DNA from: Amphiscolops sp. MND2022
Lineage: Eukaryota
Direction of reading: 5' to 3'
DNA: 64,000 nucleotides
Assembly (NCBI GenBank): GCA_964187785.1
Contig: OZ076409.1
Location: 22,880,001 to 22,944,000, forward strand
Shown here: one piece after another, positions 28,937-50,900 of the stretch
How the letters are laid out: each line of letters starts with the position of its first letter
Position numbering within the stretch: the first letter of the stretch is position 1
Program-made: the position numbers and the translations under genes
The notes under the pieces: model-generated
Told to the model about the DNA's origin: nothing
What the model saw: only the letters and a program-made list of their open reading frames with translations
Database searches by the model: none

Positions 28937-30457
28937 TGTCGCGGCCACAGCGTTGCGATGGGTCCGGTGTGCACCAGTAAGAAAACAAACAACGCTTGTT
29001 AAAAACTTCCAAAACCCAAGGACTCATTTGCAAGTCATGTAGTTTGTTTGTTTTGTAAATATTTGTTGTAATCAGGGTCATTTAGTTGATTTATTTTGTA
29101 AAACTGATGTCTTAAAATGATTTGCCAAACCTTAAGAGGATTTAATGATGTTTTTAATTATTCCTGATGATCCTAATGCAGTGCTAATAGTTCATTTTAA
29201 TTAAGCAGTACCAATTGTATACGACATTGTGCGTTTTGAGTGCTAATGAGTATGCGGTACTATGCGCATATGCATCTTTCTGATTTTCATTATGCGTCAC
29301 TATGCGGTTTGAACAGTGACATTTACTCGACACTATGCATCTTTCTAACTTTCATTATACGTCACTATGCGGTTTGAACAGTGACATTTACTCGACACTA
29401 TGCATTTTTCATTATACGTCATCCTGCGGTCTGAGGAACAATGAGTGCTCGGTACTATACGTTTTTCGCTATGCTTGCTTTAATATGAAGGATTAACTTT
29501 GCATTTCCATATACAGTAGTATAAGTCCATGATATATCATTGTTTAACACCTTTCTAGGGTATTATAAACCTCGTTATCATTTCTGAATGTCATGGAAGG
29601 TAACTCATGAGATATAAATAGGATGACGACATTCTGACGAAGTGCTATTATTAGTTTTTCCTAAGAATGATGCTTGTAAAATTGCGTGTCATCTTTTGTA
29701 ATTTTGTACTTTCTTGGGGAAAAAGGAGCTAACACAACTGATATAACTTTCTTCAGAACCAGTTTGTTCTCTGATAACGATTACAATCTTTGTGCTACAT
29801 TTTGGGATCTTTGAACATTTCAAATTGATTTCCTTTGAATATTTGTCTTCAATTCAAATTCTTGACCCTGCAAAACAATCATTTTCTCTTGAGCGAAAAT
29901 GGGCAATAAGAGAAGTAGAAGGTCTAGAAGACTAGAAACTCCTTCCCCTAGCAGAGAAGAAGGTGTTGAAACTCCAAACCCAGGTAATATGACTTTAACT
30001 AATTCTAACTTAGTTGACCAAGAAAACTTAGGTCCCAATATCTTGGAGAATCAAATAACTGAACCCAGCGTAATTAGCAATGAAATACAAGTTTGGACAC
30101 AAGAAATGGAAAAGAGAAACAATGACAGAATAGAGAAGATGAGGGAGGAGATTCATAATAAATTCGATGCAATCTTAAGAGAAATCAAAACTAGTAAAAA
30201 TGCATCTACAATCACAAACCCAAGATCAGAATCTAATGAAACACAAAACAATCAGCCGTCGGGATCCAGAAATAGGTCTATAGGAGTTCGCGCATCAGAA
30301 AATGAAAACTCTGATTCTGAAAATGAAGATAATCATCCCATCAGAGCATCGAACATGCATGAATTAAGAGACCCAGCAAGACCCTTTTGCCAAAATAGAT
30401 TTGAACTAGATGAAACATTAGTTTCAAATGAAGACTCTGAGGAGGAGGATTATCACA
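28937..30457 (+). repeat. Element A 5' LTR
   Basis: TGTCGCGG...TATCACA; direct repeat of 43453-44973 with about five substitutions seen by eye. Candidate TATA box TATAAATA at 29613-29620; 57-65-bp tandem units at about 29270-29460. Confidence 0.97.
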
Positions 30458-31578
30458 TGGTGACAGGAGCTAACCGACAACTCCATAGACACAGTTCGCA
30501 AAACCCACAGTCTCTAAACGACACAACAGGATCCCACGCAGCCCAGAACACAACAACTTCATCTGCAACACCCCTTGACCCAGTCAATCAAATTGCCCTG
30601 GCAATAGAAAAATTAGCAAACAAAAATGAATCACAAACATTCTTTCACCCAAAAAACACACTCACATTTAATGGAAAAAATGAGAAAAATGAAAAATTTG
30701 AGTATTTTGAGGACTTGTTCCACACAACACTCAGAATGCAACCGAATCTTACAGAAGACATGAAAATCAATCATTTCCACGCCCACCTGAGAGGCCTGGC
30801 ACTGAAAACGTTCAAAAACATACAAAGAACGCCCACAACAACCTTAGAAGACATTCTCAAAGTTTTCCGACGAAAATACGTAAAACCGGAGTCCAGCGCA
30901 TCTGCCAAACACAGATTCAATAGACTCTTCTTTGACCCCGAAAATCAAAAACTCCCGGATTTCCTTGAAGAACTTGAGGAAAGCGCTGAAAAAGCGTTCG
31001 GGACTAATGCGCACCAAATGATAGAGAATTTACTCTACGCTAAAATGCCTCCCCACCTCAAAAAGTCCATTAATCAAGCATACCTTGAAAACGGCACATA
31101 CAGCCAAATTGTCAAACATCTCGAACGAGAGATGGAACTCAATGGATTGGAATCCGATGAATCGCTGGTCAAAACACAGATGACCGCAACTAAAAAAGAA
31201 CACAAAACAGACAACACTAACAAAAAACAAACAAACAAAACCAAATCACAAACGCCAAAATCAGTCCCAAACAAGACCCTCAAAGATGGCCAATGCCGTT
31301 ATTGTAAAGAAGAAGGCCATATGATGACTGATTGCCCCAAATTAGCCAAACGACGTAAACTTCAGGAAGATCCAGATGCAGACAAATGCGAAAATTGTAA
31401 CACCCCCGGACACACTGAAGAAAATTGCTACTTTGGCGAGAATATGGAAAATCGCCCACCCAAATGGAACCTCACAGACGCCCAGAAAAAAGTAATCGAA
31501 AATTACAAACAAGCCAAAAAACCCATTAAACCTAAAATGGAACAACTCCAACAATCCTCTTCGAAGGATTTAAACTAG
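29899..31578 (+). CDS. gag: Gag polyprotein (559 aa), first 186 codons inside the LTR
   Basis: Capsid-like region (TFNGKNEK...FEDLF) and two CCHC knuckles, CRYCKEEGHMMTDC and CENCNTPGHTEENC; homologous to 55760-57448. Confidence 0.93.
   Translation: MGNKRSRRSRRLETPSPSREEGVETPNPGNMTLTNSNLVDQENLGPNILENQITEPSVISNEIQVWTQEMEKRNNDRIEKMREEIHNKFDAILREIKTSKNASTITNPRSESNETQNNQPSGSRNRSIGVRASENENSDSENEDNHPIRASNMHELRDPARPFCQNRFELDETLVSNEDSEEEDYHMVTGANRQLHRHSSQNPQSLNDTTGSHAAQNTTTSSATPLDPVNQIALAIEKLANKNESQTFFHPKNTLTFNGKNEKNEKFEYFEDLFHTTLRMQPNLTEDMKINHFHAHLRGLALKTFKNIQRTPTTTLEDILKVFRRKYVKPESSASAKHRFNRLFFDPENQKLPDFLEELEESAEKAFGTNAHQMIENLLYAKMPPHLKKSINQAYLENGTYSQIVKHLEREMELNGLESDESLVKTQMTATKKEHKTDNTNKKQTNKTKSQTPKSVPNKTLKDGQCRYCKEEGHMMTDCPKLAKRRKLQEDPDADKCENCNTPGHTEENCYFGENMENRPPKWNLTDAQKKVIENYKQAKKPIKPKMEQLQQSSSKDLN
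30458..30472 (+). promoter_or_regulatory. Primer-binding site (probably tRNA-Leu type)
   Basis: TGGTGACAGGAGCTA directly abuts the LTR-terminal CA and is identical over 15 nt in element B (56310-56324). The tRNA identity is inferred from similarity to TGGTGTCAGGAG. Confidence 0.8.
31569..31575 (+). promoter_or_regulatory. -1 ribosomal frameshift slippery site U_UUA_AAC
   Basis: X_XXY_YYZ heptamer in gag phase immediately before the gag TAG; the -1 frame is open from here into pol. Confidence 0.85.
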
Positions 31579-34500
31579 AAACGCCACGCCTTAACAACAC
31601 AAACGCCGAAATAAAACCACAAGATGACTGTCAGCATCAAGTGGAAACAATAAATATTCAACTTAAACGACCGACTACCGAACCTGAACCTACTCCTCCA
31701 ACTCCTGTTCAATCTGAAACTCCCAGCACCTCTCCAGATCAATACTACGAACTCTTGAGAGATGCACCAGACAACTACTTCACAAAACAACAAACCCATC
31801 CTGAAATTGACCCAGACCTCAATATTCACCACGATTCACCTATTAAAAATCATGTCACTATCAAAACTTCTTGCAATGATCAAAAACAACCCCTTCTAAA
31901 TGAAGACCTAGCTGAACACCTACAATTTGACAAAGAACGCAACTTGTCATACCTACCAATTTCAACATCCTTGACATTGAAGCGCAAACGACATATGTAC
32001 TACATTCCAATGGACTTCCAAAACCTCACACTTGATGGTCTTATTGACACAGGAGCTCTCACAAGTGCAATCTCCGAACAAGACCTCAATAAAATCAAAT
32101 TGCTCGCAAACGATGCGATAAAAGAAACTGGTCCTCCACCAAACTTTCAAATTATGGTGGCAAATGGACAACTAGAAGTCCCCATTGGTACAGTATTACT
32201 AGAGTTCGAAGTCGCAGACTTCATGTTAAAGGAAAACTTCATCATCATGAAAACTCTACCAAACCCGCTCATCGGATTGTGTTTCCTTCGCCGAAACAAT
32301 GCAATTTTCGATGTCACACAAGGAATCTTAACCTTTCCTTACCTCTCAATGCAACTGAAACCCGATACCCAAACAGCAATACGGCAAGCAACACCATTGT
32401 TTGCAGAAAATACCTACACACTCAGGCCAGGCGAAACACTCGCTATAGCAAGCAAAATGCCTCACCTGATGGACCATAATGCAACTGGAATAGTCACTCC
32501 ATCACAACAATTTGAAAACCACGATAGTATTTTTATTACAGCATCACTTAGCACAGTTAATAATAATTCTATCGGCTACCAGATCATCAATTTTTCAGAA
32601 TTGCCATATACAATAACCACTGACACCCATTTAGCGGATTTCAAAATTCTGACCCCAGAACAAATCAAACACATCCAACCAGTAGACCCAGCAGTACTAT
32701 CGTTTATGATACAACATGAAGAAACCACCGAAGTCTACATCAACGAACTCCTCAAAGTACCACAACCAAATTCTGAACAAGAATCGTACTGGTTTCCTAC
32801 CCCAGACGACCCAGGCGATCCCGCAACATATACTCCAATACAACAACGTATATACAATGAACTTCTTGAGTTAAAAGAACTCGAAAAACTGAATCCACAT
32901 GATAATGAAACATCCAGGAAATCATTCCTCTCAAATTTCGACTGGACAGATACAACACTTAGTTCAGAAGAACGACAAGAGATTGAAGAGATTCTGGTCG
33001 AATTCCACGACATTTTCGCCAGACATCGCTTTGATATCGGTATAAACCGCGAATTCAAAGTCAAATTAACACCCAACGACGACAGACCAGCTTACAGCCA
33101 GAGTCTGCCAACTCCAATCAACCTCAAAGATGACATCACAGTAGAACTTGCGCTTCTACACAAGTACGGTATAATCACAACTCTACCGTTTTCCAAATAT
33201 GCAAGCCCGATTTTTGCACAACGCAAACCAAACGGGCGCCTTAGACTCCTAGTTGACCTCCGGAAAATCAATAATCTTATCACTGAAGATTACGCCAATA
33301 ATAACCACCCGGTAAGCACCCTATCTGACGCAGCCCAACACATGGCAGGAAAAAAGCTTTTCTGCAAACTGGATTGCTCCCAGGCTTACCACTGCCTCCA
33401 AATGGCCGACTACCAATCTATCCAAATGCTCGCGTTTAACTTTGCAAGCAGAACATTTGCTTATCGACGCCTTGCCCAGGGTCTCAGTCGATCTCTCTCC
33501 GCATTTTCCAGCTTCATGAGAGAATACCTAGACAGAGCAATTAAAGCAGATCAATGTGCCCAATATGTCGATGATATCGGCATAGCAGCAAACGACACAA
33601 AACAATTGTGTATAAACATCAAAACTGTTTTTGAATGCATCCGGAACGCCGGACTGAAACTCTCCATGTCGAAATGTCATTTCGGAGTCAAACAAGTCGA
33701 CTTTTTGGGACGCACAATCACACCAGATGGAGTTGCCCCTCAAGCCGACAAAGTGAAAGATTTTTTGGCAAAACTCAAATTCCCAAAATCAAAAAAGGCA
33801 CTTCAAAGGTATATCGGATTCTTGAATTATTACCGAAACTATATACCTCGCCTTTCAGAACGACTCACCCCGTTTTTCAAACTCCTCAAAGAAACCTCCA
33901 AATTTTATGTCCCTACAAACTTGGTCGAAGACTTTACAAACCTCAATCAATTTTTGGAAAATTCTTGCCAACTCGCGCTGAAACAACCCTTGAAAGACAA
34001 ACAACTCATAGTCATGTCCGATGCAAGCTTCACAGCTGCAGGATATGCCATCATGATTGAAGACGATCCCAACCAGAAGCTTCAATCCAAACGAAAAACC
34101 TACGCACCCATTGCGTTTGGATCAAAAACGTTCAATCCAACACAAACGAAAATGTCAATTTATGCAAAAGAATTCCTCTCAATATATTTTGCATTCGTAG
34201 AGTTTGGACACCTCATGTGGGGGAGTACCTTCCCTGTCATCGTGTTCACGGATAATCGGTCTGTAACCCGGTTTTTTCAAACGAAAATGATTCCTCCAGC
34301 GCTTTGGAATGCATGCGATTATGTACTACAATACAATTTTGTAATCGCCCATGTAGCTGGATCGATGAACACAGCCGCCGATTTCTTATCTAGAACCGAA
34401 AGTAACCCAACCGAAAAGCTCGAAATGACAATTCGCAACGATATTCACACAAAAGCAATTGAAGTGATTATACAATCAACTGGAATTGTCGAAGAAGAAC

Positions 34501-36464
34501 AAATTTACATCCTTCCTGATGAAGAAATCGATGAAAATCAACTATGGGAAGAAAAACAAAACACTCGCAATCAAGCACAAAACGAAACTCACAACGACCC
34601 AGAGAACGACGTCTCTGAATTACAGCAATTTCACAAACCCACATCCGGATTGATCTCCTGCTCCTCTGGACACTTCAAGGACAATGCGAGGATACGCCTT
34701 GAACAGAACAATGACATAGTCCTTCGAAACCTGAGAGCCAAAATAGAAGGCGAACCGTTTGATGAAAACGAATTAGCTTCCGATTTCAGATATCAACACT
34801 ACTTACAAAACATAACACGAATCGAGATTAAACACGAAGTTCTCACACGCAAATACTATACAGATACAGGAATGATCTCGCATTATCAAATCCTCTTACC
34901 AATCCAACTTCTTGAAGAACTACTTCAAGCCCTCCATGGACATAACTCAAACCATCCAGGAATTACCAAGATGATTCAAGAAACACGTCAAAAATATTAT
35001 TACCCATGTATGGCCAAATACATAAAGAAATGGGTCAGTAATTGTCAGATTTGTATACAAACAAAACGTATCAACAATGATCTCCTCAGAACCGAACTCC
35101 TTAATTGTCCCGAATGGGACCTTGGACCGGAAGACATCTTACAGATGGATATTTTGCCAAACCTCCCCCCAAGCGGAGGCTACGATCACATCATCACAGC
35201 AATAGATGTCTTCTCAAGGTATTTGTTTGCTTATCCTGTGACTCGAATTACCGCAACAGCAGTTTCAAAAGTCATAATGGATATCTTATGCAAACACACC
35301 TACCTTCCAACAACTATAATCACGGATCTAGGCACTCAATTCAACGCACAAGTCACTCATGAAATTGCGGCAGTGCTTGGAATCGAAATGAAACATGCCA
35401 CAATGAAACATGCACAAACCATAGGACTCTTAGAAAGAACCCATGCCTCAGTTAAAACACACCTAAAAGCCGCCACAGGCGAATTCAGGAACAACTGGCA
35501 CAAATATCTTCCTCTAGCAGTCCTTAATCATAACACAACATACCATGCATCACTCGGTTGTGAACCCTCACGAGTTTTCCATGGCCGCATACCACACAAT
35601 ATCCTTGACTACAAACTTGGATACAATCCAAATCCGAGGTATCAACCACAAACTGACATTGCAGAAGAAATTCAAAAGCGCATGAGAACACTTTTAGACC
35701 AAACCAAAAAGAATATCATGCAATCTTACCTAAAATACAAGGCCTACTACGATAGAAAAGCAAAAGCAGCCCAGTTGGAGACAACAGATTACTGCTATAT
35801 TCTTAATCCAAAAGCCGATACACAAGCAACGAAAATACCATTCCGAGAATTCAGATGGTGTGGACCTTATAAAGTTGAAAAAGTGCTCCCTAACAATAAC
35901 TACATTGTGAGGAGACTTGGCACAAATAAAACCCAACTACTACATCGGATTCGTTTGCGGAAATTCACACCGCAGGCCCCTTTAGCAGACATTTTTGTTC
36001 GCGAAACCGACTGGCAAAAAGATGATCAAATGACTATAGCAAATGATGATCTATATGCCCAATCATGGAACACGAATTTTGGAGCAAATCCATTTGATGA
36101 CATTCCCTCAGATGCAATACACAATACTGAGGATACCGAATATGTCCCAATTCAAATACCCGACAATAGCCGCCCACCCTCCCCAGTATCTTCAAAAAAT
36201 AGCGGGGGGAGCCCAGTGGATCAGACCACTGAACCAGATCAAAATCACGGAAATCATGCTGATGAAATCCCACAACAATCAAATGATGATAATACCCAAA
36301 AAACCCGAAAAGATGTAAATAACGCAACAAACAATGATAATCAAAAAACCCCAGAAAACTCCCAAAATACCCCATTGCAAGAAGAACCCATAAATACCCG
36401 TGGTGAAAAATACAACCTACGTCCTAACCCCAACCCAAATTACTCTGACACTTATAGATACTAA
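31569..36464 (+). CDS. pol: Pol polyprotein: aspartic protease, dUTPase-like segment, RT, RNase H, integrase (intact)
   Basis: LIDTGA; KLDCSQAY and YVDD; SDASF/KEF/TDN/AADFLSR; H-x5-H...CQIC, MDIL, TDLG, LER. Uninterrupted frame. Confidence 0.97.
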   Translation, partial: FKLETPRLNNTNAEIKPQDDCQHQVETINIQLKRPTTEPEPTPPTPVQSETPSTSPDQYYELLRDAPDNYFTKQQTHPEIDPDLNIHHDSPIKNHVTIKTSCNDQKQPLLNEDLAEHLQFDKERNLSYLPISTSLTLKRKRHMYYIPMDFQNLTLDGLIDTGALTSAISEQDLNKIKLLANDAIKETGPPPNFQIMVANGQLEVPIGTVLLEFEVADFMLKENFIIMKTLPNPLIGLCFLRRNNAIFDVTQGILTFPYLSMQLKPDTQTAIRQATPLFAENTYTLRPGETLAIASKMPHLMDHNATGIVTPSQQFENHDSIFITASLSTVNNNSIGYQIINFSELPYTITTDTHLADFKILTPEQIKHIQPVDPAVLSFMIQHEETTEVYINELLKVPQPNSEQESYWFPTPDDPGDPATYTPIQQRIYNELLELKELEKLNPHDNETSRKSFLSNFDWTDTTLSSEERQEIEEILVEFHDIFARHRFDIGINREFKVKLTPNDDRPAYSQSLPTPINLKDDITVELALLHKYGIITTLPFSKYASPIFAQRKPNGRLRLLVDLRKINNLITEDYANNNHPVSTLSDAAQHMAGKKLFCKLDCSQAYHCLQMADYQSIQMLAFNFASRTFAYRRLAQGLSRSLSAFSSFMREYLDRAIKADQCAQYVDDIGIAANDTKQLCINIKTVFECIRNAGLKLSMSKCHFGVKQVDFLGRTITPDGVAPQADKVKDFLAKLKFPKSKKALQRYIGFLNYYRNYIPRLSERLTPFFKLLKETSKFYVPTNLVEDFTNLNQFLENSCQLALKQPLKDKQLIVMSDASFTAAGYAIMIEDDPNQKLQSKRKTYAPIAFGSKTFNPTQTKMSIYAKEFLSIYFAFVEFGHLMWGSTFPVIVFTDNRSVTRFFQTKMIPPALWNACDYVLQYNFVIAHVAGSMNTAADFLSRTESNPTEKLEMTIRNDIHTKAIEVIIQSTGIVEEEQIYILPDEEIDENQLWEEKQNTRNQAQNETHNDPENDVSELQQFHKPTSGLISCSSGHFKDNARIRLEQNNDIVLRNLRAKIEGEPFDENELASDFRYQHYLQNITRIEIKHEVLTRKYYTDTGMISHYQILLPIQLLEELLQALHGHNSNHPGITKMIQETRQKYYYPCMAKYIKKWVSNCQICIQTKRINNDLLRTELLNCPEWDLGPEDILQMDILPNLPPSGGYDHIITAIDVFSRYLFAYPVTRITATAVSKVIMDILCKHTYLPTTIITDLGTQFNAQVTHEIAAVLGIEMKHATMKHAQTIGLLERTHASVKTHLKAATGEFRNNWHKYLPLAVLNHNTTYHASLGCEPSRVFHGRIPHNILDYKLGYNPNPRYQPQTDIAEEIQKRMRTLLDQTKKNIMQSYLKYKAYYDRKAKAAQLETTDYCYILNPKADTQATKIPFREFRWCGPYKVEKVLPNNNYIVRRLGTNKTQLLHRIRLRKFTPQAPLADIFVRETDWQKDDQMTIANDDLYAQSWNTNFGANPFDDIPSDAIHNTEDTEYVPIQIPDNSRPPSPVSSKNSGGSPVDQTTEPDQNHGNHADEIPQQSNDDNTQKTRKDVNNATNNDNQKTPENSQNTPLQEEPINTRGEKYNLRPNPNPNYSDTYRY

Positions 36465-36682
36465 AAACAACTGACAATCCCTGACTCATTACTAGTACTC
36501 AGAAAACAAATACAGAAGAAACTCTCTTTTTTATCCTTCCTTTTTCAAATCAGCACTACGAGTGCGTTTCTTCATCCTGTTCTCCGATTCCTTTAACAAA
36601 TAAATACACAGGATACAGAGTAACTCAACAATCAGAAAACTAAAAGAAGATTATAAATATAACAAGATAATGCAGACAACAG

Positions 36683-39600
36683 TCAGTTTTTCTTGCTTTT
36701 CGGAGCTTTAGCAACCACTCTCTTTGAAGTGCCCTCTTGGGTCGACTCTGAGCAACGACTAAGACTAACATTAAGTGTACCCAATGAAGGATCAGGGGAT
36801 GGGGAACTATGTACACTGCTGCGGCGACTCACACTTGGAGTTGTTGAAGTAGAGGAAACGGTAGTTTTCTCAGCACGTAGCACAGCTTGTCGGTAACCAG
36901 TTTCCAATTTACCTTGGAGAGAAGTTTTCCGGGCATTGCTTCCCTTCAGGAAATTCCAAACCGAGAACTTTTTGTCCAATAACAAATCAGTCCCACGTCC
37001 CAACAGGCGAAAAGCACGGCTGATCGCCTTGGAATTTCGAAATAAGCTGGAGACGTGTGGCACAGTCTGATATGCTACCTGAAGACTAAACACACAAGAT
37101 TCAAACGTATGTTTATCCGACTCAAGATCTGGCATAGGTACCTTGAATGATGGCGGTATTTCCACGAATGGAACTAAACAAAGACACGAATGTTTGAATA
37201 GTCGCATCAACTCGGGTCTACACTGGATTTCATAATGTTCAACGACAAACTGAATCCAATCATCATGCTCTGGTACGGGGCTTGTCCTCAGCTTGGTTAC
37301 GAAGGAACGATACTGGCTTATCTGCTTCACCTTGTCACTAGAAGAGAATAGTCCGGTAGAAACAAAATGTGAAGACAACTTTTCAATCGCATCAACATAC
37401 ACGTCTTCTGGGCTCTCGAGCATCACCGAGGAGTCAAAAGCAGAGAGTCCCCGCAACAACTTTGACTTTACAATCCCGTGACCCATCAACTGTTTGCAAT
37501 AAGCCTTGCAGAAACTCACTGACTGGTCAATAAAATTGCTTGGCCGAGGGAGTTTACTTGAATACACCAAACGGTGAAAATCCTCATTCAAGACGAAGTC
37601 GTCTGCTGTTTTAAACGGCAAATTAGTTGAATCCAGGTCCAAATTAAGATAAGAATCCCATTCCGAGATATTTCCCAAAATGCTGTCAGGAAGAATGTTC
37701 TGCATCTGACTGTAGATAAAAACCGCAAATTGGTTGTATATGCGGAACCCTCCATCAAGTCGTTTCTGTATGTCCGAAAACGCCGAAGTATCTAAAACAC
37801 ACAAAAATCATCTATTATAGAAACCACGCATGCCTTCATGAAGAAGAGAACTAATCACGCATAGTACACGCTTTTGATAAGCTTGATTAAACACATCATA
37901 TAGCTCAATGTATAAACACCAGGGCTATAGGGCTTTACGCGGTTCAGAGAACAATGAATACTCGACACTATGTTGAGTAGGAGATATTGACTATGCGGTC
38001 ACTATGCGGAACGAGTAGTAGTGATTATACGTCACTATGCGGAATCAGCAATGCAGCTGGATTTGGGAGTTCTGAGCAAATACGATTGGTCATACGCAAT
38101 TATGCGGATTGAGAACTGATGATTACTCGTGATTATTCAGAAGAAAACAAAAAGCACGTGTCACTTATGATGAGTTAAATGAATGACAATCCTGATGTTC
38201 GAAGTTTTGGAATGAGATGGTACTTATAGTACATTACTCCAAAAAGAGGAAAACAACGTAACAAAAGATGAAACCGCTGTTATAGTATAAAGATAAATTG
38301 ACTAACAATGGTCAAGGACACATCTGATAATGAACAGACGGGCCAGATAAGCTGTGTCTAGACGAAAACACTCGTCCAGCGTATTGGGCTGAAAGGGAAA
38401 AGATTAAGAAATGGATTCAGATTACAATGGAAGGAGCTGGGATAATAATACCTACCTCTCTCATATGGAATCGATAGATAGGAAGGCAGGCAACTTGTTC
38501 TAGGTGATCCTGCACGTGATTCCAGTTGTTGGAAAGCTGCTCAATCAAAGAAGAAGCTTCAGAAAGGGAATAGCTCAAGTTTGTCACACACTAAACAAAA
38601 TAGGGGAAGATGTGCAAAACATCACAATGGAAAAGAAAAAAACCAAAGTTGAAAACCTACTTTGTGCAGAAGGGGTAATTTCTCCAGCCAATCTCTGTCT
38701 AGCGCAGTCCGCAATTTCATCAGTAAATAATCCAAGATAGAACGAAAATCGTGTCGTTCTATGACCTGAGCGGTAGGGCCTGCTAATGTTCGCTCAAATT
38801 CGTTCGGTCCAAATGGGTTGACAGTCGAAGGGGGCTTTAATCCGGGCAAACAAGACGATAGACAATCATTTAATTTGTCACTGAATCCAATGAGGGATAC
38901 ACAATTTGGGAATGTTTCGAACAGACTGAGAAAGGAAGCCACGAGAGAAAGGACTTTCCTTGGTAATAACATTCCCCGAGGGGCGCCCCCTATGCACACT
39001 CGATACAGCACATTCTCGGCCCAAAAGCAAAGAATAACGTATGTGGCAACAGGAGTATGTTGTATGGCCAATGAATAGTACCCCGAAGAAGATATAGACC
39101 GTACACAATAGTCCATGAGTTCTCGGAACATGTAGACTATGATACCCTGCAAACAAAGAAAGTGTTAAGGTATTGGAAAATGGGGAAACCTTCAACTTAT
39201 AGTGTAACTTCAAGGTAATTGAAACTTTTAACGAAGGAGAAAGAATATGGTTAAATCATTGTGTGTTAAAAAATTCACAAAGAAACTTACGAAAAGACGT
39301 TCATTGCTCCAGTTCTGATACGATAGCCGATCACTTGCTGTAAGTCTGACCAACTCGTCATACATTCCGGTCAAACTGGCGACGTTACCTCCGTGCCTTA
39401 ACCCAAATTCCAGAATGTTTATCTGCGAGAATATCTTTTCAGTTGGGGTTGTGGAAGCACTAAAATCGGGTACTGAATCTTGTCCTACTAGAGGTCGGTA
39501 CGTATCCAATTGAGGAGGAATTGGGTAGGTGTCCTTCGCCTTCTTTTTGGCTTCCTGTAGTGAAATTCCAAGCAATTCATGTTCGTCTTTGTCGTAAAGG

Positions 39601-40994
39601 GGCATTCCTGGAATCTCCATGCGGATTCAGTGTTCCCTTACTAGGTGAGATTCGGACCTGTAATGGGATATCAGTTCCAGACTCCCACGACTCATCAACG
39701 ATAATTCAACACGGCACACCCTACACCACCACTTGTAAGGTGATAACTCTTGATCCAGTGGACCTGTGGCAGAGAATTTCAAAACTGGGTGTCTTTTAAA
39801 CATACTACCAGTTAAGGAGTATCTAGGGCGGCGTCGTTTCCCCCGTACTTCAGGGAGATTACGCTCTGAGTAAGTCGGCGCAGTTCTTGAAGTAGATTGG
39901 ACAAGTGCTTCTTCTTGGCTTGATGTAGTCAATAAAGCAGATTGCGGTACATCATCCACCAAAGTAAGTGCCATAGTGTCTCCACATCCAGTCTCTTCTC
40001 CGGTGATGAAGGCTTGTGGGATCCTCCCAAGGAAATTGTGGAGAAATAAGACCTCCTGTCGAGTTACACTAACATTGGGGAACTCTGATCTGGGAATGTT
40101 ACCCAAGCCTTCCGTGTCATGACCAATTGTTTGTCCTTGGTCATTAGCCGTGCTAAGAGAAACCGTGGTTTCGGGTATCTGCCCGGTAGTGAATCCTGTT
40201 GCACCATCCTCACTAGGAGTGACGTACTGTTCAAACTGAAGAGAATGTATTTGAGAATTACCCTGCGTGATGAAATCATCAAGTACCCCTTGAGGGAACG
40301 TCGTCATTGGCTCATTCATAGCTTTCGTTGGGGTAACGTTCACAAATGGCGGCGAATTACTTCGTGAAGCTAAATCCCCTTTTTGACTTGGGTTACCCTG
40401 GGAAGTAACTCCAGGAGGCTCTGTGGATGTATGTCCACTCGGTGGCTCACCTGCTACTTCTTCATTGATCTGCAAAGTTGGGGTATTGGGGGTATCCACT
40501 TCCTCTGTAGCCTTAGAAGTCTGTGGAGTCACAACGTTCAAAGATGTGTAGACTTTGGCAGGAGAGTTGTTTGAAGTGGTTTGGACGTTTTGGGACGATC
40601 CTTGTTCAACTGAAACAATTGATCTGTTGATTAACAAAAGAACAGATTTCACAAGCAATAACCGTTCTTAACTGCCTTGAACCGGACGCGGGGACAGGAA
40701 ATAAAATTGGAACGGAAGTTGTTTTAAAATTGGAAGCGGAAACGTTTCAAAAAATTTGAACTTGACAAAGATAATAATCTTGTCATTTTCTTTTTGCTAG
40801 CCTGGCCAGCTTTGCAAATCAACCAAATTCAAAACAAATCAAAATGAAACAGAATTAAAACGAAATACGTTGAACTTACGGGATGACGTCTCAGGCGGCG
40901 GATCACTGTGCCAGAAGTCGTCACGTTGCAGAGGATCATAACTCTTCCGGGATCTTCTTTTCCCTCCGGGGCTTCCCTCTTGTGGTGAATCCAT
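36683..40994 (-). CDS. Antisense six-exon gene, about 1081 aa, Zn finger plus hAT-transposase-like body; one in-frame TGA at 39627-39629
   Basis: Exons 40994-40880, 40609-39291, 39146-38661, 38590-38456, 38388-38307, 37791-36683. All five introns are GT..AG with pyrimidine tracts; phases 1,0,0,0,1 join in frame (3246 nt, 1082 codons). WWCRVC...LISHYRSESH motif. The last exons are homologous to element B. Confidence 0.82.
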
Positions 40995-42440
40995 TCTTTT
41001 TTACAGAACCAGGAAGTAATTCAGGAAAATTCTGATGCAAGCTCAGGGTATTTGTTCCAGAAGTGAACGAGGAGAAAATACAATAGATCAGAGTAAGGAA
41101 ATTGAAAACAGATAAAAGGGGAACTAAAGATGAAGAATCCAAGATTTGGAAGATTGTGTTTAATATACTAGAACTTTAACTGAACAGACTAAATGAACTG
41201 GTAAGAAACTTGAAGATTCAAAAGAAACAGTAAAAGGCGTGGCGTAACGTAAATGCAATAGACAAAGGCAAAAGAGCAAGTGAAACAATTGTGCGCAAAT
41301 ATGCGTAGAGAATACTGCAATATGATTGGCTGTTCAAATGTCAATTACGTCTGCCAGCGTAATTGATTGACTCATCTGACTTCTGCCAACAACGTTGGTA
41401 TACATATATGCTGAATGGAATGAATTAGAAAGCGAGAGTATGCGGCAGTATGCGGATCTACCACCAACGACCACTCGACAATATGCGTATTACTGATTTA
41501 AATTATGCGGCAGTATGCGGATCTACCAATGATGGATATACGGCAGTATGCGGATTGAGCATTGACGTATACTCGACATTTAGCGGTTTTCGCTGTATGC
41601 ACGACAGAGATGAATTAACACCGTAGACCAACAAGAATGAGCAAATGGAGTGATATTACGTAATGGAACTGAAGAAACTGTGTGTTTACCACAACTGAAA
41701 GTTGAGTGGCAATATTGATATACTGTATACGTGCTTAGTTACCCTCTTTAATGACGTTTAGCCTGTGATACCAATGCCCATTTGGAACCAATATGTATGT
41801 ATGTAATAATTTGAACTGTTGGCGTTTTCTGAAACCCATAAATCATTTACCAAGAGATACTGGAATTCACCCGGAACATTAATTAACTGTACTTGCATTT
41901 TAAATGCAGGACTAACATTATTGGGTGTCTTTCCTAATGATAAAATTCAACTCACTAACGGACCTTAGATTAGATTGGAACACGTTTATTAACATCCTTT
42001 TCCTTTTATAAAATAGTCATGTAAAATCAAATAAATTGATTCTGAATTACTTTATTGAATATTTTCATGAAAGTATTTTGTTTTCAGCATCCCTGATATC
42101 AAGTCAAATTTGTTTATGTACGATTTAAATACTGGTGGAAGGTTAAGAAGGGTGATGATAAAAGGAAATCAGTTGGAGTGCTAAACGTGTTACCTTTTAT
42201 GGAAGTTGTTTATGACCAATTGTAAAAGGAACTCGTGATATGAGTCTAGGTGGAAACCCCATGTAAGGGTGTTTAGGAACCTAAAATCATGACTCTCAAT
42301 TTTTCCGCGGGTTTTCCGCTGAAAACGAAAAGTGCGAGAAACTCCATCATCATATGGTCCATATTAAACTGTGATTCAGTTGCTTTCAATTTCGAACTCT
42401 ATTTCTGTTCATCTATAAATTTTCAACTAAAACCTGAAAA
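40995..42440. promoter_or_regulatory. Candidate internal bidirectional promoter region between the antisense gene and ORF X
   Basis: Non-coding interval between two divergent ATGs, with clustered TATGCGG / ACTCGACA motifs (41436-41590) also found in the LTR. Function is inferred. Confidence 0.5.
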
Positions 42441-43496
42441 ATGGACTCACTGCAATTTAATCTCGATGAGGATCTGGGCTACTCACCCATCTCCCCTGAC
42501 GTGATAGACATCTCCAGTGAATCTGGGGAAGAGTTCATTGTTGAACCTGGCAACATTGCCCAGCTAGACGAAAAGTTCAGGGTCAATACAATGGGATCAA
42601 ACATCATGACAGCTTTTGTGGGCTCTGCAACTGCTTCTTTGTTCCCCCCTTCAAACTACGTGGGACAACAAGAATCCATCAATACTGCAGGAACCCACAT
42701 CGAAAGGGAAATCATGGAGTTGATAGAGGAGGGCCCTTCCTCTTCTCCAGCATCTCCGCTGTCTTTCATCGATTCAGAATTCGAAGGACCGGGTACTTCT
42801 CCAGTAGCAATTGCCGCAGAACCCAGAGCACAGCTTAATAATTATGGTCGGCCAACTGCAGCAATACTGCCCACACCAAGGGTCCCATTGCAACCGCCAA
42901 ATGAAACTGTTAGACCAGTGCCGACTTACCCTTCAAACTATGTGCAGAATGTCCCTAATTCTCACCAAGCACAGACAGTGGACACAAGCACAGAAGGGGC
43001 TACTAACGTACCAACATATGAACTACAAGGAATTTATCCGCAAGCCGCATTCATCCCAGAAGAATTAACACACCCTGTTACGAATGACATTACACCAGTA
43101 GTGATACATCTGCCCCCTAGAAACATGGGAATTGTCCCCGCCAACTTCAATGGTCAATTCCACCAAGTAGTCCAAGCTGGATTTCCATTCAACATTCTAC
43201 ATAGTACTAACATCCTTATGATACCAGGCAATGAGAGACAAAATTTCAGATTGTTCCCAACAGTTATGCCAAACGTCTCCGGATATTGTGACTGGTGTGG
43301 CCGTACCTTTGATCAAGTCGCACTGGAAACATTGGGGGACTATCTTGGCGCTACCGCTTACAACGAGGAAACAGTCAGGGACCGTGGGGTGCGTTCTAGA
43401 GCCTTCATAGATGGTTTTGAAGCGGCGTTGTTTATCTTCAAAAATGCAGGTCTGTCGCGGCCACAGCGTTGCGATGGGTCCGGTGTGCACCAGTAA
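42441..43496 (+). CDS. ORF X, unknown accessory protein (351 aa), ends inside the 3' LTR
   Basis: ATG-initiated long ORF in AT-rich DNA: acidic/Ser N-terminus, Pro/Gln-rich middle, C-terminal CDWC...CDG region. No obvious signal peptide or TM helix. Confidence 0.75.
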   Translation: MDSLQFNLDEDLGYSPISPDVIDISSESGEEFIVEPGNIAQLDEKFRVNTMGSNIMTAFVGSATASLFPPSNYVGQQESINTAGTHIEREIMELIEEGPSSSPASPLSFIDSEFEGPGTSPVAIAAEPRAQLNNYGRPTAAILPTPRVPLQPPNETVRPVPTYPSNYVQNVPNSHQAQTVDTSTEGATNVPTYELQGIYPQAAFIPEELTHPVTNDITPVVIHLPPRNMGIVPANFNGQFHQVVQAGFPFNILHSTNILMIPGNERQNFRLFPTVMPNVSGYCDWCGRTFDQVALETLGDYLGATAYNEETVRDRGVRSRAFIDGFEAALFIFKNAGLSRPQRCDGSGVHQ

Positions 43497-44973
43497 GAAA
43501 ACAAACAACGCTTGTTAAAAACTTCCAAAACCCAAGGACTCATTTGCAAGTCATGTAGTTTGTTTGTTTTGTAAATATTTGTTGTAATCAGGGTCATTTA
43601 GTTGATTTATTTTGTAAAACTGATGTCTTAAAATGATTTGCCAAACCTTAAGAGGATTTAATGATGTTTTTAATTATTCCTGATGATCCTAATGCAGTGC
43701 TAATAGTTCATTTTAATTAAGCAGTACCAATTGTATACGACATTGTGCGTTTTGAGTGCTAATGAGTATGCGGTACTATGCGCATATGCATCTTTCTGAT
43801 TTTCATTATGCGTCACTATGCGGTTTGAACAGTGACATTTACTCGACACTATGCATCTTTCTAACTTTCATTATACGTCACTATGCGGTTTGAACAGTGA
43901 CATTTACTCGACACTATGCATTTTTCATTATACGTCATCCTGCGGTCTGAGGAACAATGAGTGCTCGGTACTATACGTTTTTCGCTATGCTTGCTTTAAT
44001 ATGAAGGATTAACTTTGCATTTCCATATACAGTAGTATAAGTCCATGATATATCATTGTTTAACACCTTTCTAGGGTATTATAAACCTCGTTATCATTTC
44101 TGAATGTCATGGAAGGTAACTCATGAGATATAAATAGGATGACGACATTCTGACGAAGTGCTATTATTAGTTTTTCCTAAGAATGATGCTTGTAAAATTG
44201 CGTGTCATCTTTTGTAATTTTGTACTTTCTTGGGGAAAAAGGAGCTAACACAACTGATATAACTTTCTTCAGAACCAGTTTGTTCTCTGATAACGATTAC
44301 AATTTTTGTGCTACATTTTGGGATCTTTGAACATTTCAAATTGATTTCCTTTGAATATTTGCCTTCAATTCAAATTCTTGACCCTGCAAAACAATCATTT
44401 TCTCTTGAGCGAAAATGGGCAATAAGAGAAGTAGAAGGTCTAGAAGACTAGAAACTCCTTCCCCTAGCAGAGAAGAAGGTGTTGAAACTCCAAACCCAGG
44501 TAATATGACTTTAACTAATTCTAACTTAGTTGACCAAGAAAACTTAGGTCCCAATATCTTGGAGAATCAAATAACTGAACCCAGCGTAATTAGCAATGAA
44601 ATACAAGTTTGGACACAAGAAATGGAAAAGAGAAACAATGACAGAATAGAGAAGATGAGGGAAGAGATTGATAATAAATTCGATGCAATCTTAAGAGAAA
44701 TCAAAACTAGTAAAAATGCATCTACAATCACAAACCCAAGATCAGAATCTAATGAAACACAAAACAATCAGCCGTCGGGATCCAGAAATAGGTCTATAGG
44801 AGTTCGCGCATCAGAAAATGAAAACTCTGATTCTGAAAATGAAGATAATCATCCCATCAGAGCATCGAACATGCATGAATTAAGAGACCCAGCAAGACCC
44901 TTTTGCCAAAATAGATTTGAACTAGATGAAACATTAGTTCCAAATGAAGACTCTGAGGAGGAGGATTATCACA
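43453..44973 (+). repeat. Element A 3' LTR (contains a second copy of the gag leader ORF 44415-44996)
   Basis: Direct repeat of 28937-30457, followed by TSD GCTGT. Confidence 0.97.
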
Positions 44974-47505
44974 GCTGTGGGGGATCCTTAGTGTGATTTC
45001 GAGGTTCTGGACGTCTGTTTTGTTTCTTGTTTTTTTCGTTTTGGACGCGCTTTTGAGGTTCGAGTTCGAAGTTGTTGAGGTTTGACGTTGTTGAACAAAT
45101 GAACAAAAAAGTGGACCTTACGCGTCTAAAAAATATAAAAAACTACCCACTGTAAGAGTCGGGTACATTTTCTACTAAAATGCGCCGACTAAAAAAGGGC
45201 ATTACATATCGAGATTGACTTCAAACGAGGACCAGTGTTTCGGATTTCAAAGTTTCCAAAACTATTTCCATACCACGTCTCCCTTCAAATGTTTTTGAGG
45301 CTCATACGCTGTCACTCTTTGTTCTTCCCTTGTTGAACATGCTTGAACTTTTTTCATGTACTTTAATGTTGCCAGCAACTTTTGTTATGATAATCTAAAT
45401 ATCTTACGGAAACTTTAATGCGTTAATATTTCCCTGTTGTCGCCAACTTTTATCAAGCTGCTTTAAAGAATCATCAAAGTTTTGGCGGCAATTTCAAGCT
45501 GTGAAGTTCTGCAAGTTCCAATATGCATCAGTTCTAATTTTAAATGCAGCTTAGACCTCAACAATTTTGCCGCCTTTTAAATGCAAATTAACTTCATTCA
45601 CAATGTAAACAGCAAACTAGCGTCATCTTCAGCGTCCTATTTGAGACGCGGTGATTGAATCAATAAAAAAAGGGATCACAACGTGATCGTGTCCGTAAAA
45701 GAAGGGGGAAATATTTTCAAATTTAATTGCAGTAATGGAAAATGCAGTGTAATTGTACAAGATTTACCACCGGAACCTTACTGAATTTTCTAGGTTTTAT
45801 AAAAAATTACCCTGCATGCAGGCCTGCAGCATGTAAATAGTTCCAGGAGTCTCAACTAGGGTTATATTTTCAAGTCGAAATATTTAGTCCTCATGCTACT
45901 GTTTTGAAGATGTAACTGAGAGATGCATTCATGCACCCTAATGCTAGCTTGTCAGCAATATCAATAGTACGTTATTTTCAGTGAAAGATAATCGGCAACA
46001 ATTTTTCGGGCATTAATCAATTTTTTTTCGTAATCACAAAAAAATAGAATCTTGTTTTTTATGATTCAAATTATTGGATTTTTAATTGCTAGATATTTTA
46101 GTTTATCGGCGACTCTTTTTTGACGCTCCGTGGAAAATTGGCGAATTCGCACTTCGTTGAACTGTGAAGCCATTGGTTACTTTGCGATAAGTTTTCCACC
46201 AGCAATTTCGAACCAATTTTGACCAAACACAACATTTATGAAAGGCATTATCAACGGCTTCATGATTCCACGCACGTTTTACGGTCTATCTCAGTTATGC
46301 AATCTACTGAGATAACTGACTTCATGTCAGCAATGAAAAGAAACGTAGTCAAGTAAAAATATGTTACGTTCTCAAAAACCCTACCAGCTTATTGAAATCG
46401 TAATGTCAAGATCGATGGTTAGACTTTGAACCATATTTCGATAGATCAATGTTGCATTTGCCGTACTTCAGATGTTGGATTTTTATTGAGTTCTGAAGAA
46501 TTCTGAAATTATCAAGTTAACTCAGCGTTTAGATTTTATTAATTATGAATAGGGATATGAAAAGTTCTTCACAATACAAAAGATAAAGTGAATACAATGA
46601 AGTAAAATCCGAAGTGCTATGGAACTATCAAAAATTTAAACCCTAATTCAGAATGCAAAGGTCATCTAAGGTGAACAGGTCCTTGTGCTTCAAGCCCCAA
46701 GAGGCCACAGAATTTCCATTTGAGTTTAAATCGAAAAAATATCTTGAAAAACTGCAAAGTGTATGAAGAGTGTATTTTCATGGCAGCAAAACGTGAAACG
46801 TGAAGACTTCTCAAGAATTAATTTTCTAAAGAAAGACTACATGAAATCAAAAGATAAATTCAACATTCAACGTGCTGACTTAGCGTTCGGATGGATTTCC
46901 TACATCAAGATGCCAGCAAAAATTTAGGGTTCTTCAAAAAGGCTACTGGAGAAAATTTTCATCGATCAAATGATTTTTTGTTGACTGGCTAGACTTTTTG
47001 TGGCACCGATACATTTCTTTACAGTTGAAAAATGTTAGCTGAACTAACAATAATTGTATGCAATAACCCATATTGTTTTCCAAAATCTGTGAAATTAGCA
47101 AACTTTTTCGGTTAATCAAAAAAATTAAACATGATTTAGCATTCTAAAGTCACCGAGAAACGCTTTTGCAAAACTCATTTACAAGCGAATTAAGAAATTC
47201 TTAGCCTAAACGACTCTGTCTGCTGAGAAGTTAGAGTGCACACAGACTCGAACAGTATGGTTGCTCTCATTGACGTGAAGTCAACATTTGATTCGGTAGA
47301 CCAAAGCTGGCTCCATGCAAAACTAAAGCGCTCCAAATTACTCGAATATGCAGAAAATTTGCTATCTTCGAGACTATCATTAAAATTCGTGTATCAGGTG
47401 CCAAAGGTCTCAATTGAAGCGAAATGAGTAAATTGTGTCCACGAGGATGAAATTTGGGACCATTTTTGTTTTTGATAATTACCGTCAATATTATGGTGAA
47501 TCAAT

Positions 47506-47968: not shown

Positions 47969-50900
47969 TGTGTAGAGGACATACGAACTTACTTAGACTG
48001 TAGAAACTAATTAGTTTGCTTCCCTATTTGTATATATTTATTTATTAATACTTGATTAAAGTACCAGCCCTGTCACATAAGCGCAGAAGAAGCTATACGC
48101 TTAGTGATACAAAAGAATAGTGAAAAACAGCTAAATTTTAAAACATTGAGTTTGAGTTCCTTCTCTTTACGAGTATATCAGGAATACAACATGGCGCAGT
48201 CAGAATAACGATCAAAGTTACAAAAGATCATTGCGAAAGCCTAATGGGCGACAACACAAACGCCACCCAAAGGAGGCACCAACATTACGTCGGTGGAATT
48301 ACAACTAAGTGAACAACTGCTACCAAACGACACGATGAACCGAACCGCAGAACGGAGAAGCACCCAGAAGCTTACCAATCCAACACTGGAAAAGAAAGGC
48401 TCCACCAATGTGGTAGTGGAAGTTTGTACAAAATATAAAAATGACAAAGGACCTAGACCTATCAACAAAGACAAACAATTAGGAAATACTGCCACAATTC
48501 CGTGATCAATTAGAAACAGAGATGAAAGACAATATTCTGTGGGCAATTGGACAGAATGCTATCACGGAACTGACCAAAACGGTTAGAGATAGAGTGAGAG
48601 AGCCGAGCTCACTACCGTTGTACAAATTACATACATCATTCCGACTACATTTCACACCGGAGAGAAACGTTCAACACAGTACAGCCGACTTTTCGACTTG
48701 AAACGGAAAGACGGAGAGTCCGCGGCAGACGTCCGGAAGTGGATATTGGAAGTAGATAAAAACTGCAAATTCGAGACAATAACCGCAGAAGAACTCTTGG
48801 CATCAATATTCCTATCCGTAATCGGCAAATCGATAGGAGACTACGACTAAAGAAAAAAATCAGAAAAAGTGACATGTCGGTGGAGGGAATTACCGAAGCA
48901 TTACATGAGTACATGTACGAAAAACAAAACGACTCACCAGAAACAATATGAGAAGAAAATCCGATATCTCAATAAAAGAAAGACCAGAAGCACCAAAAAC
49001 CAACGGATAAACCGGGTAATTTCAAGAAACCAGACTGCTATAGATCCGGAGCCTCCAACTGGTTACGAAATCATGAAGAATAAGCTAGGGGAAGGAATGT
49101 TCGCGAATTGTTGCAGAACAAACAAAAGAATAAACCGCATACAATAACAGGAAACAAGTAGTGCGGAAGAAGACTATTGGTCACCGTCACAACACAATCC
49201 ATTCCGAAAATCAGAAGATCCATTCAACACGCCCAATGAAGAAGGACGGTCCGGAATTCTTCACTCTCACCGACAGCGGATTACCGGTAATTTTGATACC
49301 GAATTCACGGTTTAACAAAATAACAACATTGAAGCCGCTTGAAACCGAACATAGAGATGTAAATGACAACGGGATGAGGTTCGAAGGAAAATCGCAAAAG
49401 TAGAAAAAGATGGGAAACAAAAAATGTTGAAAATCCTGATAACGATAAAAAAACCAACTCACTATTAGGCTTAGCTTAGACTGGATGGGAAAATTGGGAA
49501 TAACGCTGGGTACTGGTAAAACCGATCCACGAATAAATTACATAACTGAAGATCCGGACATAACAGTACTCAAAAAAAAGTTCAAAATGTTTTCGTTGGA
49601 AATCACACCGTAAAGGACTCGAAGTACAGATACCATTAAAAGAGGACGCAAGACTGATACAGCAAAAAGGAAGGCCAATACCAAATCACCTACAGCAATT
49701 GGTCGGAAAGAAAGTGACAAATTAATGAAACAAGGCCATATCGCGAAAACAAATAGCATTGATGAAATTTGCTTTGGTAGCACGGCCGTAATCAATGTTA
49801 AGAAGGACACGTCGAGAAAAACTACTCTGGTTTCGCGAAAGTTGAATGAAATCACCAAAATGAGAAAGGCACAAACGCCTTACAAGGAGGAATTTTTTTC
49901 CAGAATTTCCAGAACGATTGTGGAACAATCGGCAAATGAAATATGGATATCAAAGTTTGATTTGGACTACGCTTGCGGGCAACTACTATTGTCCAGGAAG
50001 CCTGAAAACTGTGCATATTTGCCGTAACCGGTGGACATTTTACAATTACTACCGTTTCCTGAAAAGATTTTACGGGTAGCGGATATTCCGACAATTTTTC
50101 AGGAGACAATCGACCAAACACTGGAGAACTTTCATCTGGCATGGTTGTATGACATAATCGTCGGAACAAAGGGCTCACAAAAACAACACAAAAAAGAGTT
50201 AGTAGACGTTTTAACCTGACTAGAAATAGCTGGATAGAGCCTCAGCGAAAACAAATCCGAATTTTTCAAAACAGAGATTGAATGGATTGGCCATAAACTA
50301 GACCAAAACGGAATCAGATCACTACAGGACAAGCTGATGGCAGTTAAAGATTTGAAACATCCCAATAACGAGAAAGAACTCAAATAGTTTCTGGGGGCCA
50401 TCCAATATCTGTACAATTAGATAAACAAACGGATAGTCTGAGACAACTTCTTAAAAAGATACCGAATGGTTATGTACAGAATAACACACGCAAGCGTTCG
50501 AAAATCTCAAACAAATGATCAAGGAGTACTCATGTGTCGTAACTACAACTCAGATTATCCAAAAGTTATAACAAACGACGTCAGCACTAAAGGCCTCGGT
50601 GCAACGCTTTGGAAAGAACAGCTGGACGGAAAGCTAGAATCAATCGGTTTTGCAAACCGATTTTGATCAGATACCAAGAAAATATGCAATAAACAAACTC
50701 GAATTGCTAGTCATTGTCTGGGGACTAGAACATTGTCGTTTAAACATTTACGGCAAACCGATAGAAATGCTCACGGATCATCACGCACAAGAACCACTGA
50801 TAAAACGAAACCGGTATAACAAAACGTATAGCGCACAGCTAACGAGTTGGCTGGACCGATTAGCACATTTCACCATTAATGTGAACCAGATCGCAGGCAA

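Follow-up and report, generated by a model that had tools for sequence, protein, structure and literature searches.

The stretch of DNA analysed here, referred to below as the window, comprises 64,000 nt from Amphiscolops sp. MND2022 (GenBank assembly GCA_964187785.1, contig OZ076409.1, forward-strand positions 22,880,001 to 22,944,000) and contains a complete Ty3/Gypsy long terminal repeat (LTR) retrotransposon of 16,037 bp at window positions 28937-44973. Between the end of pol (36464) and the start of the 3' LTR (43453), the element carries a further gene that runs opposite to gag-pol. This antisense gene occupies 36683-40994 of the minus strand, from an ATG at 40994 to a stop codon at 36685-36683. 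An initial annotation, made from the letters of the window and its open reading frames (ORFs), had divided the gene into six exons and five GT..AG introns, and all of these coordinates hold. In the direction of the antisense frame, the parts are as follows.

40880..40994, minus strand: exon 1, with the ATG at 40994 and a conserved GKRR..YDP..R[DE]DFW..PE motif
40610..40879, minus strand: intron 1, 270 nt, GT..AG; better conserved than the flanking exons, with predicted hairpins in the plus-strand RNA
39291..40609, minus strand: exon 2, 1319 nt; a Ser/Thr/Pro-rich N-terminal part with little conservation, then the invariant CxxC..H..H zinc-finger motif; TGA at 39629-39627
39147..39290, minus strand: intron 2, 144 nt, GT..AG
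38661..39146, minus strand: exon 3, 162 codons; predicted RNase H-like core
38591..38660, minus strand: intron 3, 70 nt, GT..AG
38456..38590, minus strand: exon 4, 135 nt
38389..38455, minus strand: intron 4, 67 nt, GT..AG
38307..38388, minus strand: exon 5, 82 nt; of equal length in a distant second element
37792..38306, minus strand: intron 5, 515 nt, GTTAGT..AG, phase 1; 515-646 nt between copies; contains a plus-strand TATGCGG array at 37992-38107
36683..37791, minus strand: exon 6, 368 codons and the stop; predicted helical C-terminal part

Joined, the six exons yield 3246 nt, that is 1081 codons and a stop, in a single frame. The annotation had proposed one frame of about 1081 residues. 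Its joins and phases are correct, but the frame is not open from end to end in the window copy, where an in-frame TGA at codon 366 (39629-39627, in exon 2) had been missed; on the ORF list, this stop shows as two abutting ORFs of the same frame.

Many near copies at 95-100% identity exist in the genome, and 19 of these were aligned. All 95 introns of the 19 copies have GT..AG boundaries. Exon lengths are unchanged in 16 copies, while intron lengths vary (190-270 nt for intron 1, 547-646 nt for intron 5), and insertions and deletions are found almost only in introns. Thirteen copies have no stop at all, three have one stop, and three have a frameshift or an insertion. With splice sites, exon lengths and open frames behaving in this way across 19 copies, the structure is far beyond chance. 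The position of the window TGA is occupied by an ordinary sense codon in 19/19 near copies, and a selenocysteine reading of the TGA was rejected on this ground. The gene family is intact, as judged from these alignments, and the window copy is a member of it that was broken recently.

A more distant set of 16 diverged copies, with 67-79% DNA identity, was also fetched, and 12 of them were aligned. The spliced translation of a sister copy matches the diverged copies exon by exon, and splice sites and exon sizes are kept across families with 62-71% protein identity. In the 12 alignments, 113 of 120 splice dinucleotides are canonical; the seven others are three donors (GA, GC and GG) and four acceptors (AA, AA, GG and CG). 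Exons 1, 4 and 5 have constant length almost everywhere, and two copies retain an uninterrupted frame of 1079 codons. Introns 2-4 are 34-62% alike, compared with 56-80% for the exons. The former range is about what an aligner yields for unrelated DNA.

Substitutions follow the predicted frame. Between families, the proportion of nonsynonymous differences (pN) is 0.17-0.24 and that of synonymous differences (pS) is 0.75-0.84, so that synonymous sites are saturated. Within the family of the window element, the ratio of nonsynonymous to synonymous substitution rates (dN/dS) of the spliced frame is 0.11-0.17, and p-distances at codon positions 1, 2 and 3 are 0.015, 0.011 and 0.034, the third being about three times the second. 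When all six frames of the same alignments are compared as a control, the predicted frame gives a pN/pS of 0.12-0.26 and four others give values of 1 or more; the antiparallel frame, which shares wobble positions, gives 0.21-0.37, as expected. The comparison of exon selection with intron divergence that the annotation had suggested as a check gives purifying selection on exons, diverged introns 2-4 and conserved splice sites. This pattern is the signature of a protein-coding gene on which selection has acted in lineages of active elements. The frame under selection comes into being only through splicing of the minus strand, which implies a spliced antisense mRNA.

These data bear on whether the antisense transcript matters only as RNA, for instance as double-stranded RNA or a small-RNA precursor, with the frame being incidental. 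Non-coding antisense transcripts of retrotransposons are known, micropia being an example cited in PMC7264820. Here, such a reading is contradicted by frame-specific purifying selection over 1081 codons, by fixed exon lengths with indels confined to introns, and by an open frame maintained in many families; we consider it extremely improbable.

The gene is also constant in its surroundings. It is present in 19/19 near copies and in 16/16 diverged loci, and in all of the latter the end of pol adjoins it in the opposite orientation. On its other side, a conserved sense ORF is found in 13 of the 16 diverged loci, and in 12 an LTR with the start of gag lies beyond that ORF. When the genome was searched with the exon 6 protein, 6749 first-look candidates came up. 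The 111 candidates that were scored are 62-100% identical to the query, 15 of them contain stops, and nearly all matches start at exon residue 1 or 2.

A second Gypsy element at the right edge of the window carries a homologous gene in the same place.

55754-62377, plus strand: gag with DUF1759, and pol with dUTPase, reverse transcriptase (RT), RNase H and integrase
63996-63915 and 63764-62614, minus strand: last two exons of the homologous antisense gene, separated by a 150-nt GTTAGT..AG intron; the remainder lies past the window edge

The minus-strand ORF behind this pol encodes a product 23% identical to that of exon 6 (pairwise E 1e-11). Upstream of it is an 82-nt exon, the length of exon 5 in the first element, and the intervening 150-nt intron is in phase 1 and splits a Tyr codon exactly as intron 5 does. 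The spliced translation is open and aligns from the first residue of exon 5. By these sequence comparisons, the antisense gene has long been a constant component of animal Ty3/Gypsy elements that form a large, abundant clade. A recent transduction of a host gene was considered and rejected, since the gene is present in all families examined. The annotation's view of a dedicated accessory gene is strongly supported by frame-specific purifying selection both between and within families, by splice sites and exon sizes kept between families and in the second element, and by the adjoining pol in 16/16 loci, and the gene is very probably a real, selected accessory gene of the element.

The encoded protein has three parts: a variable Ser/Thr/Pro-rich N-terminal third that is probably disordered, an invariant CxxC..H..H zinc-finger stretch, and a conserved body of about 700 residues. 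In four families, the CxxC..H..H motif stands invariant ahead of the core. A weak C2H2 hint (E 0.17) is all that Pfam reports for it, and it may resemble BED-type fingers. Database relatives of exons 3 and 6 are all unnamed, exon-sized ORFs. For exon 6, 204 homologous ORFs were detected at E <= 0.001 in 1.84 billion representatives, and the best 150 of them are no longer than about 420 residues, which fits exon-sized pieces. Word-indexed searches returned 87 relatives for exon 6 and 89 for exon 3, all from ENA assemblies and one also in MGnify. No longer proteins homologous to exon 6 were found, which is weak evidence by the search's own rating, and metagenome scans with two single proteins gave no match.

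Structure prediction points to a hAT transposase. The exon 3 model (47 homologues, predicted local distance difference test (pLDDT) 76.8) runs helix, three strands, helix, strand, helix, strand, which is the RNase H-like order. Its structural matches are RNase H-like folds, headed in Foldseek by the Hermes transposase (4d1q_G, E 3.1e-3, probability 0.98), with the additional Hermes chains 8sjd_D, 8sjd_A, 2bw3_A, 6dwz_A and 8edg_A in the list. The exon 6 model (51 homologues, pLDDT 74.9, above 85 for residues 10-205) is all helical. Foldseek finds no match for it at E <= 0.001; the best fold match is residues 368-609 of the Hermes hAT transposase. Independently, language-model features of exon 6 point to clusters in which 60-72% of members have Dimer_Tnp_hAT and to FAM200-GTF2IRD2-like clusters, at 0.90-0.92, which is in the weak range. 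The hAT assignment is made because these individually modest lines, the exon 3 fold, the exon 6 fold and the language-model features, agree with one another, and on the models we consider descent from a hAT-type transposase likely.

Of the characteristics of hAT transposases, the RNase H-like core is predicted, while the D, D, E triad and terminal inverted repeats are lacking. The first catalytic Asp of RNase H-like transposases is located at the end of strand 1. In 48 homologues, this position is Gln in 33, Glu in 7 and Asp in none; it was placed from the model strands and the Hermes alignment ranges rather than by residue-by-residue superposition. The acidic residue after strand 4 is Asp in 29 and Glu in 14 of the 48. 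With the first catalytic Asp replaced, the protein most likely binds DNA without cutting it. Continued nuclease or transposase activity, with the protein cutting or joining DNA on behalf of the element, could draw on the predicted RNase H-like core, on the acidic residue after strand 4, and on the Glu found at the end of strand 1 in 7/48 homologues. Against this stand the Gln in 33/48 and the complete absence of Asp at that position, together with the integrase that the element already possesses, and we judge such an activity very unlikely.

The predicted fold raises another question, whether a hAT DNA transposon or its relic is simply nested in the Gypsy element and hitch-hikes with it without serving it. 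Nested transposon insertions are common, and the modelled fold does resemble that of a hAT transposase. No convincing pair of inverted repeats was found around the antisense gene, however. The sole pair flanking the whole gene (36478-36496/43363-43381, 19 nt, 79% complementary) is no better than other listed pairs. Place, orientation and neighbours are constant in 16/16 diverged copies and in the very distant second element, purifying selection has acted in lineages of the element whose silent sites are saturated, and none of the 48 homologues has Asp at the first catalytic position. On the constant neighbours and the lack of inverted repeats, a nested hAT transposon was rejected as the principal explanation, and we regard it as quite improbable.

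The carrier of the antisense gene had been recognised as a Gypsy LTR element in the initial annotation; its LTRs, gag and pol bear out that identity, and at 16,037 bp it is larger than was then thought. Its other features are listed here.

28937..30457, plus strand: 5' LTR, 1521 bp, TG..CA, preceded by GCTGT; contains a TATGCGG array at 29251-29372 and the first 559 nt of gag
29899..31578, plus strand: gag, with an MGNK.. start inside the LTR and a CCHC zinc knuckle
31536..36464, plus strand: pol, with protease, RT, RNase H and integrase
41439..41553, plus strand: TATGCGG array about 450-550 nt ahead of the antisense ATG, in the spacer that separates the antisense gene from ORF3; candidate promoter/enhancer region
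42438..43496, plus strand: ORF3 ('orfX'), 352 codons from stop to stop, extending 44 nt into the 3' LTR; kept in 13/16 diverged copies; no known family
43453..44973, plus strand: 3' LTR, followed by GCTGT

The two LTRs (1521 bp each, 28937-30457 and 43453-44973) are 99.67% identical, and the insertion is accordingly young. They begin with TG and end with CA, a 5-bp target duplication (GCTGT) is present on both flanks, and TGG follows immediately 3' of the 5' LTR, as expected of the primer-binding site of an LTR retrotransposon. Pfam detects zf-CCHC, RVT_1 (residues 563-728), RT_RNaseH (821-930), Integrase_H2C2 (1122-1177) and rve (1198-1288), and the order of the pol domains (protease, RT, RNase H, integrase) is that of Ty3/Gypsy. 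As gag begins 559 nt within the 5' LTR, about 186 of its codons are repeated in the 3' LTR (ORF 44409-44996); this LTR-encoded part of gag is kept as protein between families at 54-78% identity.

A short motif, TATGCGG, is found both in the tandem repeat of the LTR and in intron 5, within its conserved part. On the plus strand of the window, it occurs 16 times inside the element, against 0.58 expected, and once outside. Besides the spacer array, its clusters are:

29251-29372, repeated at 43767-43888, plus strand: TATGCGG cluster in LTR U3
37992-38107, plus strand: TATGCGG cluster in intron 5

The spacing of the motif is mostly 10, 22, 33 or 65 nt. All three clusters are at the same places on the plus strand in 12/12 diverged copies, which together have 152 occurrences on the plus strand versus 5 on the minus strand in 120 kb. 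The arrays have been kept although silent sites between these families are saturated. The second element has no TATGCGG on its sense (plus) strand.

hAT transposases bind arrays of short subterminal repeats, and by this mode of binding the protein of the element is a natural candidate for reading the TATGCGG arrays. Antisense introns are not recognised in sense genomic RNA and survive reverse transcription, so the opposite-strand placement of the gene allows its five spliceosomal introns to persist through that step. In the mechanism that we propose, the gene would be read from its own minus-strand mRNA, with a probable start in the 1.4-kb spacer that separates exon 1 from the sense ORF3 and a probable end in the approximately 220 nt between the stop codon of the gene and that of pol. 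The 1081-residue product would act in trans on the DNA of the element, recognising the TATGCGG arrays of LTR U3, of the spacer ahead of exon 1 and of intron 5, and its binding would control sense transcription, antisense transcription or both. Retroviral accessory proteins likewise regulate their LTRs. That the protein binds these arrays as a regulator is a tentative suggestion by analogy, and one that may well turn out to be wrong.

The arrays could instead be bound by host factors or act in the RNA, with the protein serving as an accessory factor in some other step, such as integration tethering, nuclear import of the pre-integration complex or protection from silencing. The evidence for a real, selected gene applies equally to this possibility. 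The basic, conserved GKRR motif in exon 1 may be a nuclear signal, and the single orientation of all arrays would also suit an RNA signal. Such roles are listed as open for plant antisense ORFs in PMC7264820. Nothing favours any one of them here, and the arrays sit where enhancers and promoters are expected, in LTR U3 and upstream of the antisense ATG. We consider a role of this kind rather unlikely.

Two further parts of the element are conserved between families. ORF3, a fourth gene of the element, has pN of 0.34-0.45 and pS of 0.76-0.82 between diverged families, with strongly conserved N- and C-terminal blocks that include a CxxC motif, and it has no match in Pfam. In one close pair of copies (L036 and L021), both of which are far from the other families, ORF3 shows pN of 0.085 and pS of 0.16; if their antisense genes differ more than ORF3 does, families may have recombined. 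Intron 1 is 64-79% alike between families, above exons 1 and 2. As plus-strand RNA, it folds into hairpins with 54 pairs at -36.95 kcal/mol, and the minus strand folds worse (-23.53 kcal/mol, 40 pairs). Fourteen pairs of the plus-strand fold show compensatory changes, compared with 7.3 +/- 2.0 in shuffles, of which 1/500 reach 14, and only 2-5 such pairs are counted when the partners are slid. From the better plus-strand fold and its compensatory changes, it seems that a structured signal of the sense genomic RNA lies within this intron of the antisense gene, and the intron may serve as a cis signal of that RNA or as an internal promoter. Rfam gives no match at E <= 1 over the whole element. 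Intron 1 also contains the palindromes GAAACGTTTC and AGCTGGCCAGGCT and CTTCCG motifs.

Taken as a whole, the explanation that we somewhat favour is an antisense accessory gene whose product is a hAT-like, non-cutting DNA binder that regulates the element through TATGCGG. Several observations weigh against it. The window copy of the gene is itself interrupted, and of the two diverged copies whose frame is open, one has GG at the donor of intron 4. The spliced minus-strand mRNA, including its start, end and junctions, is implied by selection on the frame and by that alone. No Pfam family matches any antisense exon at E up to 10, sequence profile searches of the PDB with exons 6 and 3 return chance-level rows and no transposase, and each structure model covers a single exon. 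Finally, protein and arrays are connected purely by inference, and binding of the arrays by a host factor or a role at the RNA level is equally possible. More speculative still is a broader history, which we put forward as a conjecture with less than even prospects: a large, old animal Ty3/Gypsy clade would have permanently recruited a hAT-type transposase gene, whose disarmed protein became the clade's own TATGCGG factor at the LTR and internal promoters. With this gene, ORF3 and the intron 1 RNA, the elements would count as 'complex retrotransposons'.

In the usual view, gag and pol are all that a retrotransposon requires. Complex retroviruses are marked by their accessory genes; descriptions of such genes in retrotransposons come mainly from plants and fungi and assign them no known function. 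HBZ of human T-cell leukaemia virus type 1 (HTLV-1) is a small, spliced basic leucine zipper protein transcribed from the 3' LTR. REM1 of the green alga Chlamydomonas is said to be an LTR retrotransposon with an extra reverse-oriented gene encoding different protein domains (Perez-Alegre et al. 2005), and brtn, an antisense gene of Botrytis elements, was reportedly described by Zhao et al. in Virology in 2011.

The closest arrangement is that of plant Ty3/Gypsy elements, for which PMC7264820 and PMC11963269 describe antisense ORFs between pol and the 3' LTR, including gene23 of maize Grande, which is said to have its own promoter, and those of rice RIRE2, Silene Retand (TRP28 domain) and Phaseolus PvRetro13. 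These resemble the present gene in lying between pol and the 3' LTR in the opposite orientation, in being carried by most copies of a family, and in their suspected role in DNA binding or regulation. They differ in having plant hosts and in being described as ORFs, the word 'intron' being absent from both papers. Nor do they share a sequence family with the gene described here, which has six exons, 1081 codons and a predicted hAT-like fold; Pfam detects neither TRP28 (PF04195) nor any other family in its exons. The brtn gene, according to brief mentions in PMC8365987 and PMC7264820, is an antisense gene inside Boty-like Ty3/Gypsy elements and likewise lies behind pol; its host is a fungus. The gene described here encodes a transposase-like protein and belongs to an animal, whose 1.07-Gb genome contains wnt-family genes, which are peculiar to animals. 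HBZ, mentioned as an antisense gene in PMC7264820 and PMC11963269, is comparable in that it, too, belongs to a reverse-transcribing element, is antisense, spliced and protein-coding, and has a regulatory role, which is here only proposed. The present gene is large, has five introns and an unrelated fold, and is located 2.4 kb inside the 3' LTR.

On the protein side, the predicted order of zinc finger, RNase H-like core and helical C-terminal part is that of Hermes and other hAT transposases and of the domesticated ZBED and FAM200/GTF2IRD2-like proteins, and two exons modelled separately both have Hermes as their best structural match. In contrast to hAT transposases, the protein has no detectable sequence similarity to the family, lacks the first catalytic Asp and is not bounded by inverted repeats, and its gene resides in a retrotransposon rather than in a DNA transposon or at a host locus.

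The initial annotation had remarked that no animal Gypsy lineage with a multi-intron gene of this size was known to it. This stands in so far as a full-text literature search (subscription journals mostly outside it, Repbase, Dfam and GyDB not covered, a prior description being possible) found no animal Gypsy element with such a gene, and, within the same coverage, no retrotransposon with a hAT-like gene. It does not extend to the principle, as antisense accessory genes have already been described in plant and fungal Ty3/Gypsy elements and, with HTLV-1 included, are known as such. What appears to be new is the host, an animal; the size of the gene and its division into six exons, with deeply conserved intron positions; and the transposase-like protein with matching arrays.

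An animal genome with thousands of copies in many families, each with a large multi-exon antisense gene under selection, is a well-powered natural system: the intact genes are many and diverged, the candidate binding sites are conserved, and the protein can be tested. If a disarmed hAT transposase does read the arrays of the element, a retrotransposon can domesticate the protein of a DNA transposon for its own regulation, in a stable merger of two classes of mobile element. Such elements would be complex retrotransposons in the sense in which HTLV and human immunodeficiency virus are complex retroviruses, and gene finders that mask repeats would be missing a whole protein family.

Elsewhere in the window, broken retroelement pieces with RT, RNase H and integrase fragments are found at 24374-26425 and 49614-53437. 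Within the latter, 49614-51093 and 51958-53437 look like a 2.3-kb tandem duplication, judged by their equal ORF sizes.

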